The translations under genes were made by a program, and so were the position numbers. Shown here one piece after another: positions 1,701 through 15,143 of a stretch of DNA of 64,000 nt (positions are counted from its first letter, which is position 1; each line of letters opens with the position of its first letter). The notes below the pieces were generated by a model, which saw only the letters and a program-made list of their open reading frames with translations, was not told where the DNA came from and did no database searches. Origin of the DNA: a virus; the IMG/VR virus record IMGVR_UViG_3300025449_000010, positions 1-64,000 of that record. The stretch is one strand, 5' to 3'.

Positions 1701-1996
1701 GCAGCCTTCAGTGCCTCATCGATCATCTGCAGGGGCACAGTATTGAGTATGAACTGAATCTCAGACACGCTGTAGGAGAAGAGACGGTATGACACCAGCT
1801 CATTCCCCCTGAACAGCAGCAGCTGTATGTCATATATGTCCTGACCATGCAGGCGTCCCTCGAATAGGATAGGGCTAGAGGCTGGTCTCTTCTCCGCAAA
1901 GACTATCTGACCATACGAGGTGACGCTGTATACAATTTCTAGTTCTTCCATAGTATTAATTCTAAGTTGAATACTGTAGTCCCGTATCGGGTGCAA
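1697..1996 (-). CDS. Small hypothetical protein (start may be ATG at 1951)
   Basis: Directly downstream of, and co-oriented with, the giant gene. Confidence 0.55.
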   Translation of the reverse strand: MHPIRDYSIQLRINTMEELEIVYSVTSYGQIVFAEKRPASSPILFEGRLHGQDIYDIQLLLFRGNELVSYRLFSYSVSEIQFILNTVPLQMIDEALKAA

Positions 1997-13900: not shown

Positions 13901-15143
13901 CGCCACCGATGAGATCGTCATCTGTAAAATTTTCAGAATCCTCCCTGAATGTCTCATCTACCATCAACTTAAGGTGAGAACGATCATTAGCAAATTTAGT
14001 AGCAATTCTCTCATGAGCATCGTAATGATTAGATCCCCTTCTCACGAGAGCATGCTTCATTGACTGTAATCTGCCAGCAGTAGTTAAGTTTCCACCTAAG
14101 ATGGCTAAATTAGTATTGTTATCATCATCACTATCGCTAGGAGTAGCTAGAGTCACATGAGCGCTAAAATTTACATCAGTAGCAGTTCTAGCCGTAAGGT
14201 AATCGAGTGCAGTCTCATTCTGTAACTGAAATATATCTATATATAGCCTGGTCTTACCTGCTCTTATGCCACCAGCCTGACTAGAAATAATATCTGATTT
14301 ATTACCCATCATCAGCAGGGCAGTGCCAATTCCAGGACGTATTTCAGTAGGTGAAGGCTCAGTTATATTAAGAAGTCTGGCTGCAGAATCTAAACCAACA
14401 GGATCCATCATGGTGTTGTTTAAATAACTGTTTGCCCTGGGATCTCCAAGTAGCTGCATACCAGTATTGATAGATGCAGCATTGAGATCGGCATAGAGCA
14501 TCTTAGACTGCGCCTGTATAGCTAAATTACCTTCTTCCCAAAGATCTGTATTCCTATTACCAGATACTATACCTGCGCCAAGCCCGCCAGAAGTCCATGG
14601 ATTAGATACTGCAAAAAATAGAGAACGCGCATCTGCATCAGAGCCAAGACCTAATCTACCCGATACAACTTTCAAGATGTCATAGGTCTGAGCTGTCGGT
14701 TTAGATAGTCTATTGAGATCTGTATCTATAGCTGTATAGGTAATAGCATTATCAATACTCTGTAGACCATCTACACTGCTAATTTCACCAGTACTCAGCT
14801 TATCTTCGTAATTTTGAGCCGCCTGAATATACAGATCCTGATTAGGATTATTAGAATCAGATGCAGCTTCTAATAAATCAGCGTAGGTTTCTATGCCATC
14901 TCCCGCCTCAGGAAGGTACTTGTTAATCAGTTTGCCAGAGACTGCGCCAAAAAAGAATCTCTTACCGCCCGTTAAACCCTGTTCAGCTAAAAAAGCATCA
15001 GATAAATACTGATTTTTCGCATTAACCCGCAACAGGTTAAATTTCTGCTGCATATTATAGTTCTGAACAAGTAGCAACCCATTGTCACTAGATCCATCCC
15101 TATAAAAAGCTCCCGGTTGCCAAGTACTATTACTATCTGACAC
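1962..15143 (-). CDS. Giant multidomain protein: putative single-chain two-barrel (DPBB) RNA polymerase with PLD-like and PD-(D/E)xK-like domains; candidate tape-measure-fused virion RNAP
   Basis: 4393-aa ORF. Beta-prime-like motifs IYRPQPL (R3001) and NLGDYDGDM (D3071-D3075, nt 5919-5933). Beta-like motifs GGYLHDATYY (aa 1871-1880) and SGDRQEANFGLFKSVV (G2058-K2069). Two HxK...GSxN motifs (H390/G419, H757/G780). IDVI...GVQVKS (D1252-K1267). Helical, partly hydrophobic C-terminus. Confidence 0.7.
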   Translation of the reverse strand: MSDSNSTWQPGAFYRDGSSDNGLLLVQNYNMQQKFNLLRVNAKNQYLSDAFLAEQGLTGGKRFFFGAVSGKLINKYLPEAGDGIETYADLLEAASDSNNPNQDLYIQAAQNYEDKLSTGEISSVDGLQSIDNAITYTAIDTDLNRLSKPTAQTYDILKVVSGRLGLGSDADARSLFFAVSNPWTSGGLGAGIVSGNRNTDLWEEGNLAIQAQSKMLYADLNAASINTGMQLLGDPRANSYLNNTMMDPVGLDSAARLLNITEPSPTEIRPGIGTALLMMGNKSDIISSQAGGIRAGKTRLYIDIFQLQNETALDYLTARTATDVNFSAHVTLATPSDSDDDNNTNLAILGGNLTTAGRLQSMKHALVRRGSNHYDAHERIATKFANDRSHLKLMVDETFREDSENFTDDDLIGGVSILGSMNLTEPVGRDFELSGSNFELVSIARFRTEHEINKTIEDIEDEYNGDPGLSKLAETKRSAMEMENILYTQRRKIAKSDFTGYSADRDEVRDNFNNLRTAADKDIDSGKETTDMRGVYEHLDSALSYLSDYTYGVDSANNKFKKSVNESARMIMMLDQTLLLQGTSLLRDREGGAFTSEFGLYDQNMQRYLKDNDLAQRYARLQEKTLNSLIEGRLTVAVDIRNFAEQVLNPLISKMNSAPDSKVNQEYNGNLLGYMRMIKQKYASTSTYAEDILTSIMEGGVSHRAGFEVYEHIFGQGSIAKYEETGLNSTQHVRDTLRTLLAISSGNVQEASVPRQHAKAYSLYEYDNNNNIVTIASNIGSSNFTPFSMELLTESDFNSHEAYMEYKQKLSLELNEVSLNPDYASRFNPANAGYNVLGNRDMLPEVAKVHSQSLHNLVSRGFSEALGWGQEQRDRFFQEESVPRSFMGAIDQPQNMKGDILKQIRNTESVKTAFNILIEQLKRSSVTDIELFNRVSEALGHRATMEDRLAEYEKAFHEYGKYGSEGYSPAVNPYNMKVNKDRTSYTFNNLGGVELSLNSSLESGGTDSFSVKIGNKNLSYTILNSSTEARSNATENTNLEGTIVLTNESRVYRGSVIASKDAGNFATPFGAVKSGMGNELYLNSAQTGVMAILGNVLEYNYRKSIASPAQYINNVNSMDDISERSRFIRDLTVNFLSNLGMGSSSPIERGKLENRLEATLGFHKNLIGADDTPIKGKVLDNGLAGAYGKPVEVTSHKSYLSEDAGTNYNSSGGDNAVNRFVEYLQDPRFSKVISNVRKLDENTKGDVNSKIDVIYDYQGKTYGVQVKSSKTGSEMHLIKNREEIVDTNIDSRNPGVFWVHKNFKDHDAALDMIADFIDPSKKAQDAVEIKNQDVKKFLLEARNTLILLTEYGGKMTQALDNSALPSRVNEDRYVDEYARKWVEKGYYKTFEEARTNVISVRERLRASRNPHMTDLYDVVKNTVELTRGLNANYGSTRRESLDSIIELFNLTIDQFNPKTVGGSVNLDTFSNTLGKILGLNTNEERAKGHVLSDVFALMAHGLSDRVDVNEMINQHVSINTIPFAELGLGTNSQAHYTISRSEYNDANKSFLERSRGSAEVGISNLYSMSSVLSPMIFDPTKYGGTGFYALASAITNTTMEYYSTATGSRMQELSLLNNWEALEAIGIGYIIDGDRDSNDVSQFTESDYYSDIAGVANLGNEFLESQKNLAINSYNSVVASNQTALVNKDRLLITRTGKKDKQFQFAQRIRNAMGTKSKVALSAEYTHYINLLNSFDAKDRSRADNYIENIRKNFRTELFGDDGRTSEREATAALLFGGYFPHMMTMGYQFDSDIRSLMAPSQLKIYENMKAKLNGDEYRDLFDDKQKKHLLRAWAVTRDQLDGTSMTGAPIITDRDGYRWEDQPIMLLRLGGYLHDATYYANAGFGRKINTDSGEEVVPTRYGNINIQNRKVKSYGLMNDFSMANLNLGIGDIVSIDPHTGEAYLVRKGSNIVNTLSAQQVRGIVDNAASAVAASTDQNRNSSSIGSDKLIKLLEGIKDKAVSGSSSITEATLGARVSISYHNNSIEIKTGLGTSGDSSNSATVVRNVSIRSSLLVSGDRQEANFGLFKSVVQMFDVEGFEYRASEYNRSQREGRLGKSRDGFGILRSAVEGSRGIQAHQIHGIANITSFKAYMPGHGAQLLRHEEGVAELTEGISALGAKRVAAAMLLTFGIESFTGYGEDNDKDRSEEYAKKISEALHRYGENITDINGEIDDAPEILRNIRVASRQDSESFLRGGINKLNRLNITSNPLFEVFNQARGGIDLAAVLAGDNGAQTKFIETLNKIIISSAKTGENDRALSTGSMQDMFAESFVAGLHVGMQLVSSQQQFDNMPVNYENYAFEMAAVSLGLTSSQIYEIVNDTDTTRKNNLASMFYGLDMSMRTVALFLGHSPSASKVAVGSRSSGEIEFQIQQKSLLGASEFIKQAHNRKQAANRFFAALKNSFSGRGQIFEENVGTLFDVVGLVDSTVAGSAVTGIDTYLYNNGSRLIGSYYLHALNAADNELSDQWNRNGRNPSDRPTVEQQQTRADELFKEAKTGMQLLGRAMAFFDMDNSRASVNDKARDMMADNKFINLYNQLETFANNNSNNFLDISLKVGRQTNRIGPDGRFIREDITLREFLETISAVNPVNAQGPHSTGYSREAIYKILKTYHKTALRSMFRETEDRGIKSGLYIIDHAEKFIEQGLKNSGNTRDMLLELPAILETSRGTGGTGYIAVDYNQTVRGVLLGSDTLVSLGMHKLGDTTAEMISNQIELHTMLSPDSDVMTFYRSLAERKRNGETGIITDISIDKRMIERLQRFQDLLRGSINSLQEQGQIAASNRITLNLERQTRVVTSNPWLAEGIAVTGQSSLELQKRKKIEVSGGRRTELAEYGSSSQALVRGIDTYLNSFNEILRDVEAGASSNIMMSGANGVYGNGPRDELRNIIGELTTLKNDIKSRNSSKININSHMYNLLNQGTITRTQLNNITDDPDDLAEWEIRLGNLESRARINSLSSLIYRPQPLGGLNISYLHHQIIDIHTYNKAAINLATRGINVSPEIKRQFMKMNEDRSKGLLMVNTVGRMIQNLGDYDGDMVIMIESNIVNLQTNLSQLNIAIDSLNELRKQGRTTQNGKNIDMTVAKLEKEKIVLSSQIANLQKQYSTNYHLKKTRQFIADLVGLDYESIGTGYDSYHYQKLRNQYIAEYRKLSTNKTAVIGKTELEIRNEAAAGVTAGINGRDFVFAGYTGTVASSQDNSYTAFMNEVNRRVEQELTGIKVGDRADEISNKKYRILWNITSKKIEEELIEEGIKRGQMDSRFIGPSLASMLSMHDKGYTLSESRNAWAKFNVEESYNSIYDILYNRQMLDQEKREKFRNLIHLEGSADVTQELSHMQLLAQRFYNQLEPQVGHQEAERRAAAGVLSEFYQHLWSSKNKGEVLEGVQKLFNNLNVGAATTTNILEGSLQIQAELASNILGKAVNFFSLTLYGHMSTGIMSEAVHNNYEDLIEIKKEQIMAKKPLMNEETARGEAQVEVDNLKRTVDKENRRFESIQGMHQTIAQSLRDFIKPTGNIDEISKELSSIQEERNYEKRKNRIKELAGKIGPSKSLQDNFMILEQFRTIAELIHGGTSGEVIDTSTNEIDNNFKVFLEGSHAEGGLNIKNGKALINALTPGDTSNASINKMLAYVASTRLHTLIANTRAETHLKDRSNDQHGDLVAREKDEELHKFYKVEKGRLDLKSRRRNSELYNIENSNLQDYLRQHWYDDEDAGNSNAEANQKRRENLETIILSQSEFKRHVEDLETNNRKADAEYLRKERDRLTILTEIYRKSRKDVDNFIGREGEKLLDNSEISLASSLYAAKDLSDPVYAHTAPFLGAWISKAAHGKEGIGTNEVYRSLSMSLFNMIKDVQWERTVRHDDGSTSKELVTGHVTEDNSEEDIKAYSETVKKQMLRTYLSTMSKSIAGKSEYKAFENLIDLLTAEGNKALRTEGNAEAIKAGLDTTAFGNIIKHINNVFDVYIDSIKRRNPRNPNRDVAVHSTIGEFDFNGDLSERDVERLYNEYFARKEYDINRVRSIEHQKRFNGEIVSIHQASMHIESTGQIYDSLIYPLLVGLGGALANSNQNSNNGINEAAGAFFSNMVFQLESHRAAQLVELGKTRTTLKTLGSMGMAIMGGSMISIRNEMYHHPDESYGQAFIHAYEDRFRMMMWGAVVSATMQGHQGMSEDLSRLTTKLNRRLGEDNVFSRVTQSASEFLEEGLSGVMMNHLNIGPEIDMPGYVKARSLFGIITSIAVGVALQVSGAQKAAYALAGITEDAELNNYVVTQAYKDAAEIKAAAQQSALQVANVDIELIRSEASDIAVGILSGPTGNGEFNSMYSEQQMENLNITIYNENNNADGPQGLIAPDTGLQYST

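Follow-up and report, generated by a model that had tools for sequence, protein, structure and literature searches.

The window analysed here is a stretch of 64,000 nucleotides with which a linear viral record of 72 kb begins (IMG/VR record IMGVR_UViG_3300025449_000010; completeness rating 45%). On its minus strand lies a giant gene whose product, a protein of 4393 amino acids (aa), is the subject of this study. The original prediction, made from the letters of the window and a list of its open reading frames (ORFs), had described this product as a highly diverged single-chain RNA polymerase with fused counterparts of the beta and beta-prime subunits, probably packaged in the virion. The ORF was confirmed (Table 1), as were the positions of the five motifs quoted for it: GGYLHDATYY at aa 1871-1880, SGDRQEANFGLFKSVV at aa 2057-2072 (with K2069), HGIANITSFK at aa 2122-2131, IYRPQPL at aa 2999-3005 (with R3001) and DYDGD at aa 3071-3075. 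The three motifs regarded as beta-like precede DYDGD by 949-1200 aa. An in-frame TAA lies one codon before the GTG start, and the N-terminus aligns with the ‘MS..F’ N-termini of homologues. An identical 4393-aa protein was found as database entry P0002.

The plus-strand genes of the window were found to form a myovirus structural module, with PHROG matches that include baseplate and cell-wall hydrolase genes and have E values of 1.8e-28 for the portal, 8.2e-116 for the major head protein and 1.2e-89 for the tail sheath. The capsid protein shares 43.5-44.2% identity with its counterparts in Microcystis phages Ma-LMM01 and MaMV-DC/DH01/CH/DL and in Microcoleus phage My-WqHQDG, and when phages were searched with it only these Microcystis/Microcoleus phages were matched, with 10 records in all. 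On sequence grounds the window is a viral contig related to Microcystis phage Ma-LMM01.

Table 1 Features of the giant gene, its product and the adjoining head module (residue numbers refer to the 4393-aa protein)
Feature	Residues (aa)	Nucleotides	Strand	Remarks
Giant gene		1962..15143	minus	4393 aa, GTG start; syntenic counterpart of Ma-LMM01 gp080
N-terminal PLD-type (HKD) domain	~277-800	12744..14315	minus	two HxK...GSxN half-sites
Central region, predicted to be beta-strand-rich, candidate second barrel	1865-2142	8718..9551	minus	invariant G1872, D1876, N1882, K1913, D1932, D1937, R2060, L2067, K2069, V2071, K2131, H2137
R2060...K2069, basic pair nine positions apart		8937..8966	minus	invariant; candidate second-barrel basic residues
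IYRPQPLG	2999-3006	6126..6149	minus	invariant R-x-x-P-x-G; 70 aa before the acidic loop
NLGDYDGDM	3068-3076	5916..5942	minus	candidate Mg-binding triad; family consensus NLGDFDGD
LG.AG..ILGK..N block	3432-3463	4755..4850	minus	invariant G3432, L3455, G3456, N3460
QSLRDFIKP	3540-3548	4500..4526	minus	second most conserved window of the family
Second conserved hydrophobic stretch	~4086-4122	2778-2888	minus	invariant L4091, G4095, G4114
Hydrophobic Gly-rich C-terminal segment	4259-4282	2298..2369	minus	Kyte-Doolittle peak 1.84 at 4264-4282
Head module: orf123, orf155, portal, protease-like ORFs, major capsid protein		15281..22717	plus	divergent from the giant gene; PHROG matches for portal and major head protein

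In Ma-LMM01 the same place, divergent from the orf-portal-protease-capsid genes, is occupied by gp080, a 3562-aa ‘hypothetical protein’. BLASTP comparison of the giant protein with gp080 gave weak but colinear segments at aa 277-769 (4e-21), 2115-2411 (5e-5), 2997-3109 (0.003) and 3445-3571 (0.003), and in the third of these NLGDYDGDM is paired with NLGDFDGDT and IYRPQPLG with IQRSPPPG. The two proteins share the N-terminal PLD region, the central region, the DFDGD region, the Q.LRD.IK block and hydrophobic C-terminal segments, whereas gp080 is 830 aa shorter and only 19% identical overall. Alignment at NLGDFDGD was likewise seen for a partial giant protein from a Microcoleus phage. Further giant ORFs of 3565-4790 aa, every one of which contains D-F-D-G-D, came from pattern scans of IMG/VR and metagenome contigs together with family alignments. 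The resulting family set holds 15 sequences from six lineages; its full-size proteins measure ~3,500-4,800 aa and identity between the six lineages is 17-29%.

The giant gene adjoins orf123-portal-protease-capsid in all 11 homologous loci. Nine of these have the divergent arrangement, and the two co-directional ones (L003 and L014) belong to the Microcoleus-phage lineage, in which the giant gene sits directly upstream of the head module. Within the Ma-LMM01-like cyanomyovirus clade the giant ORF is a genuine core gene. Since the capsid proteins of the homologous loci are 44-48% identical to that of the window and the giant proteins are only 17-29% identical, the divergence of the giant gene is far greater than that of the genes beside it. 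The family is also rare, as a phmmer search of aa 1950-3149 against 1.84 billion representatives matched its own cluster alone. A word-index search retrieved three proteins, namely the query itself and two at 68% identity, and the same search with the family profile retrieved two; among proteins of 929-2650 aa the word-index search returned no family member. No match was obtained by tblastn of aa 1950-3149 against phages (E<=1), nor by megablast against phages and plasmids.

Within this divergent family, about 65 of the 4393 columns are invariant in an eight-sequence alignment. Besides the residues listed in Table 1, they comprise G435/S436, H757/K759, S781 and K1701-G1714 in the N-terminal half and R3001/P3004/G3006, K3054, L3069-D3071-D3073-G3074-D3075 and Q3540-K3547 in the C-terminal half; S1234, N1235 and L1239 are conserved in a nine-sequence alignment. 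When conservation was ranked by 11-residue windows, the PLD motifs came first, Q.LRD.IK second and the DFDGD block fourth. D[FY]DGD was present in 15/15 family sequences, with D3071, D3073, G3074 and D3075 invariant over the six lineages, as are R3001/P3004/G3006, R2060 and K2069, and all lineages have DFDGD except for the window protein with its DYDGD. The conservation that the original prediction had looked for, namely that of the three Asp residues and of K2069, was thereby borne out. Furthermore, the back-translated D[FY]DGD pattern occurred once per record and always within the giant gene in 5/5 records, these being the window contig, two IMG/VR contigs and the 162-kb genomes of Ma-LMM01 and Microcoleus phage My-WqHQDG, and the reversed pattern gave 0 matches. 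The acidic motif is beyond chance.

The family motif is present in a single copy and has no Gly directly behind its fifth position in any sequence, which would not fit calcium loops of the EF-hand or FG-GAP type. Both loop types were rejected for DFDGD on these general motif rules only.

In order to compare the family with known polymerases, a lineage-weighted profile of the whole family was prepared (~3830 columns) and known polymerase sequences were slid along it. The E. coli beta-prime (RpoC) block NADFDGDQM scored a z of 8.2 at the acidic motif and ranked this site first of 3833, with NADFDGD matching NLGDFDGD. When all 13-mers were scanned, the best matches of RpoC (z 7.63) and of the two Thermus phage P23-45 proteins gp96 (7.75) and gp64 (6.82) fell on the DxDGD site, all of them above the maxima of the corresponding reversed sequences (6.91, 6.11 and 5.92, respectively). 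With hhalign, aa 2985-3100 aligned to beta-prime at P 6.7e-4, compared to 0.096 for the reversed control, and to gp96 at P 0.007 (reversed 0.19; only 13 columns aligned), and a wide comparison with beta-prime gave P 0.0099. An invariant RxxPxG lies 58-70 aa upstream of the acidic motif in the family, and the gp96 block FRNPVMG ranks that site second of ~3830 (z 5.23). Judged by these comparisons, measurable similarity to known two-barrel RNA polymerases (E. coli beta-prime, P23-45 gp96 and gp64) is limited to the DxDGD site of the giant protein. In such polymerases the aspartate triad of DxDxD binds the catalytic Mg ions (PMC7824862).

As the most likely explanation, to which we give even chances, we propose that the giant protein is packaged in the virion and ejected, and that its core is a cryptic two-barrel RNA polymerase. 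The precedents invoked for such a protein by the original prediction are real. In P23-45, gp96 joins a virion RNA polymerase to the tape measure protein (Chaban et al. 2024, PMC10770324); it was found through the DFDGD of a giant virion protein that had no other polymerase similarity, and the same report, in the sections cited here, describes many polymerase families as lacking significant similarity outside the DxDxD region. Like the protein studied here, gp96 is giant (5002 versus 4393 aa) and encoded among structural genes, has an invariant DFDGD with no polymerase similarity detectable in libraries, carries an upstream F-R-x-P...G motif and has transmembrane-type segments elsewhere in its chain, and its DFDGD block finds its best match at the same site. 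It differs in that its polymerase is N-terminal (active fragment 327-1124), whereas here the motif is found at 70% of the length and behind a PLD domain; in its spacing from RxP to DxD, which is 38 aa compared to 58-70 aa in the giant family; and in its origin from the tail module of a siphovirus, the giant gene being located beside the portal gene of a contractile-tailed cyanophage. Unlike in P23-45, the two 162-kb genome records yielded no further D[FY]DGD protein of the gp64 kind.

A second precedent is gp66 from crAss-like phage phi14:2, a virion RNA polymerase (bioRxiv 10.1101/2020.03.07.982082; PDB 6VR4 as cited in PMC10770324). This is likewise a large virion-module protein with a DFDxD-type motif deep in its chain (DFDID at position 1361 of 2180), but of podovirus-like crAss phage origin. 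The architecture of the giant protein can be described as a variation on the theme of gp96 and gp66, and the statement made with the original prediction that no such combination was known is too strong. Literature that links gp080 or the giant-protein family to a polymerase was not found in a search that covered papers without their supplements; the 23 polymerase-family alignments in Supplementary Data 3 of PMC10770324 could contain the family.

The gp96 precedent also raises the question of whether the giant protein is the tape measure protein of the phage, either alone or fused to an enzyme. The annotation of the window includes no tape measure gene, and the C-terminal hydrophobic segment and long helical stretches would suit one. 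The gene position is at odds with it: the giant gene adjoins the portal gene in the window and in the 11/11 loci instead of lying between tube and baseplate genes, and it is on the strand opposite to the head module in 9/11. A 1334-aa ORF in the tail module (38786-42790, plus strand), which has no Pfam or PHROG match and is itself a possible tape measure protein, is better placed. The giant protein matched no tape-measure family of Pfam or PHROG, and the sole fold row of this type had an E value of 0.02 and a probability of 0.09. As a rule of thumb, a tape measure protein spans 1.5 Å of tail per residue. By this measure the tail that goes with a chain of 4393 aa would greatly exceed the 260 nm reported for MaMV-DH01. 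We rejected the tape-measure identity on gene position and regard it as very unlikely.

The order of the candidates here, with the basic pair coming first and the acidic triad second, corresponds to beta followed by beta-prime. The family consensus sequences G.YSD, GRR.EG..LFKGV and NP.NLKS appear by eye nearer to beta than those of the window protein do. With registers picked post hoc, the blocks around R2060/K2069 ranked seventh of 3835 against PGDKMAG and 19th of 3836 against NKGVIS of E. coli beta, and the LGK..N block at aa 3453-3463 ranked 15th of 3831 against the E. coli bridge-helix block; the favourable block ranks as a whole (2, 7, 8, 15, 19, 44 and 71 of ~3830) come from registers picked after looking.

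Several results weigh against a polymerase core. Similarity to polymerases is confined to ~13-20 residues around the motif, and among seven long E. coli blocks only NADFDGD located the predicted site, the other six leaving it outside the top five. Three of them were long beta blocks, for which the predicted site was never among the top five. A chain of four beta blocks scored best at positions 434/952/1002/1090, away from the candidate region, and 192 of 300 shuffled-block sets scored equally well or better; none of the rpoB 13-mers exceeded the reversed control, and hhalign placed the beta-like region at non-cognate positions of gammaproteobacterial beta, with P 0.18-0.31. GGYLHD, GDR..FKSVV and HGIANITSFK, on which the original prediction had relied for its upstream barrel, cannot be told apart statistically from chance in their likeness to beta-subunit motifs. 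The fused beta/beta-prime assignment is partly supported: the DxDGD block has its best match to E. coli beta-prime, gp96 and gp64 above the reversed controls, and the beta motifs do no better than chance. The bridge-helix candidate gave no signal in hhalign (P 0.3), and that the LG.AG..ILGK..N block acts as a bridge helix is only a guess. The gp66 DFDID block scored z 6.23 at the DxDGD site, below its reversed maximum of 6.56, and hhalign with gp66 produced no cognate alignment; the family profiles A4 and A5 reached probabilities of 0.8% and 0.2% against residues 1-1200 of gp96. Compared to E. coli RpoC and RpoB, the giant protein differs in having no Pfam match, no beta similarity above controls and no bridge-helix signal.

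A further resemblance was noted within the central region, where FKAYMPGHGAQLL at aa 2130-2142 (8718-8756) resembles FRNPVMGHGGALL of gp96 (z 6.98) and YMPFHGEAL of gp64 (z 6.50), just above the reversed controls. It was not counted as evidence, as the gp96 and gp64 motifs differ in their place relative to DxDGD.

The Pfam family PF00623 (RNA_pol_Rpb1_2) had 0 matches in the six frames of the 72-kb contig at E<=10, having been recovered in 14/14 control genomes, and the giant protein is not assigned to this family. Pfam and PHROG searches of the whole protein returned sub-threshold rows only; phmmer retrieved nothing from the PDB sequences at E<=10, and of the profiles A4 and A5 the former picked up only coiled-coil noise there (best E 0.11) and the latter found no match. 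AlphaFold2 models were built from input alignments of 11-12 rows. The model of aa 2660-3600 had a mean predicted local distance difference test (pLDDT) score of 44.7, with 650/941 residues below 50, and was all helix, at a confidence too low to speak either way or to serve as a search query; that of aa 1690-2460 had a pLDDT of 51.1, with strands at ~aa 1865-1956, 2025-2073 and 2121-2126 (pLDDT ~50-63). At these confidences neither model yielded a double-psi beta-barrel (DPBB). Searches with Foldseek against PDB, with VIA-align and against BFVD produced no polymerase rows, an absence that is uninformative given such poor models. A complex prediction that combined aa 1850-2150, aa 2975-3160 and Mg, carried out without control runs, gave ipSAE values of 0.01 and 0.00, which count neither way, and the ESM Atlas returned no usable match for aa 2850-3350 and aa 1850-2150. 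Finally, we found no published virion proteomics for the Ma-LMM01-like clade, and the MaMV-DH01 paper, in the part cited here, states that mass spectrometry is still needed (PMC9927357).

The best conserved region of the protein is the PLD-type domain near its N-terminus. Its half-sites are formed by H390/K392 with G435-S436 and by H757/K759 with S781, and G435, S436, H757, K759 and S781 are conserved across the family. Pfam PLDc_2 matched 3/8 family members (best E 1.2e-5) and gave no match to the window protein at E<=0.05, and a gp080 fragment is named ‘PLD phosphodiesterase domain-containing protein’ in BFVD. By its paired half-sites the giant protein can be assigned to the PLD (HKD) phosphodiesterase superfamily. 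The window protein is free of cysteine, and 0-1 Cys was counted in 15/15 family sequences of 1533-4790 aa, as would suit translocation in the unfolded state or exposure to the periplasm. At the other end of the chain, Gly-rich hydrophobic peaks of at least 1.5 were found within the last ~330 aa in all nine family members examined, and by its hydropathy aa 4259-4282 is probably a membrane segment.

The main alternative is that the giant protein is ejected as a ‘polyvalent’ or internal virion protein and has no polymerase function, its work being done by the PLD domain and the membrane segments. Its roles might include breaching of the envelope, attack on host nucleic acid or lipid, or provision of a conduit for DNA, and its DFDGD loop would bind a structural metal or serve another enzyme as a Mg/Ca site. 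No library recognises any part other than the PLD region, which is also the best conserved, and the polymerase-specific features beyond the short motif all failed their controls. The Ma-LMM01 transcriptome report, in the sections cited here, describes sigma-70-like motifs for all three expression classes and no phage-specific motif (PMC5780444), so that the published promoters resemble those of the host. On the other hand, of the ~3830 positions it is the acidic motif with its flanks that gives the best match to three different two-barrel polymerases, and ~2,500 residues from the PLD domain to the C-terminus would be left unexplained. We hold this alternative to be possible but doubtful.

Returning to the polymerase reading, a plausible course of events can be outlined. 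The neighbourhood of the head module in 11/11 loci, the near absence of Cys and the hydrophobic C-terminal segments suggest that the giant protein is packaged and translocated, from which we infer that it would be carried in the virion, probably in or at the capsid or portal, and ejected into the host together with the DNA. Its C-terminus would insert into a membrane, and the N-terminal PLD-type phosphodiesterase, a putative nuclease or phospholipase, would cut nucleic acid or lipid. The centre of the chain (~aa 1850-3600) may fold on arrival into a very divergent single-chain two-barrel RNA polymerase, in which D3071, D3073 and D3075 would bind the catalytic Mg ions and R2060/K2069 of the upstream barrel would contact the substrate. 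The first (pre-early) phage genes could in this way be transcribed before, or independently of, the host polymerase, as with gp96 and the crAss-like gp66.

A two-barrel enzyme of another activity, such as RNA-dependent RNA synthesis or priming for a plasmid-like replicon, also deserves mention. DYDGD, the form of the motif in the window protein, is that of QDE-1-type enzymes, and the phage carries a TrfA/ParA replicon. Every other lineage of the family has DFDGD instead, and we consider such an activity most improbable.

The replicon itself pairs a replication initiator of the TrfA type (E 5.4e-17) with an ATPase of the ParA type (E 2.8e-27), both encoded at 55110-56634 on the minus strand. 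These genes occupy an AT-rich island between the tail and fibre genes, so that a plasmid-like replicon lies within the phage, and the description of the virus as plasmid-like in the original prediction agrees with them.

It is an even question, in our estimate, whether Ma-LMM01-like cyanomyoviruses carry and inject a fusion of 3,500-4,800 residues in which a single-chain two-barrel RNA polymerase is joined to a PLD enzyme and a membrane anchor. If they do, the family would add a third independent lineage to the giant virion RNA polymerases and would be the first such polymerase in contractile-tailed cyanophages of ordinary genome size. Its architecture, with a PLD domain, polymerase and membrane segment in one chain and the gene beside that of the portal, would be new and would join a small set of giant injected two-barrel polymerases. 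The MaMV-DH01 genome is stated to lack an RNA polymerase in the part of its report cited here (PMC9927357), and the printed view of full dependence on the host polymerase would be contradicted. A virion polymerase would also alter the picture of early Microcystis infection and bears on the near-unchanged host transcription that has been reported. The Ma-LMM01-like group includes the main cultured phages of bloom-forming Microcystis, and the claim is testable in culture with Ma-LMM01, MaMV-DC and MaMV-DH01. Should the motif not belong to a polymerase, the proteins would still represent a conserved, cysteine-free and PLD-headed giant family of the virion module.

Promoter and terminator scans at both ends of the giant gene were uninformative. 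The giant gene has a G+C content of 38.4%, compared to 46.6% for the remainder of the window, whereas in eight homologous loci the G+C content of the giant gene was not below that of its flanks; the low value in the window may reflect recent replacement from a relative of lower G+C content. Within the head module, two adjacent overlapping plus-strand ORFs at 18783-21372 (374 and 491 aa) both matched phrog_32941 and head-maturation-protease families, and this pair may be a duplicated or split protease/scaffold gene.

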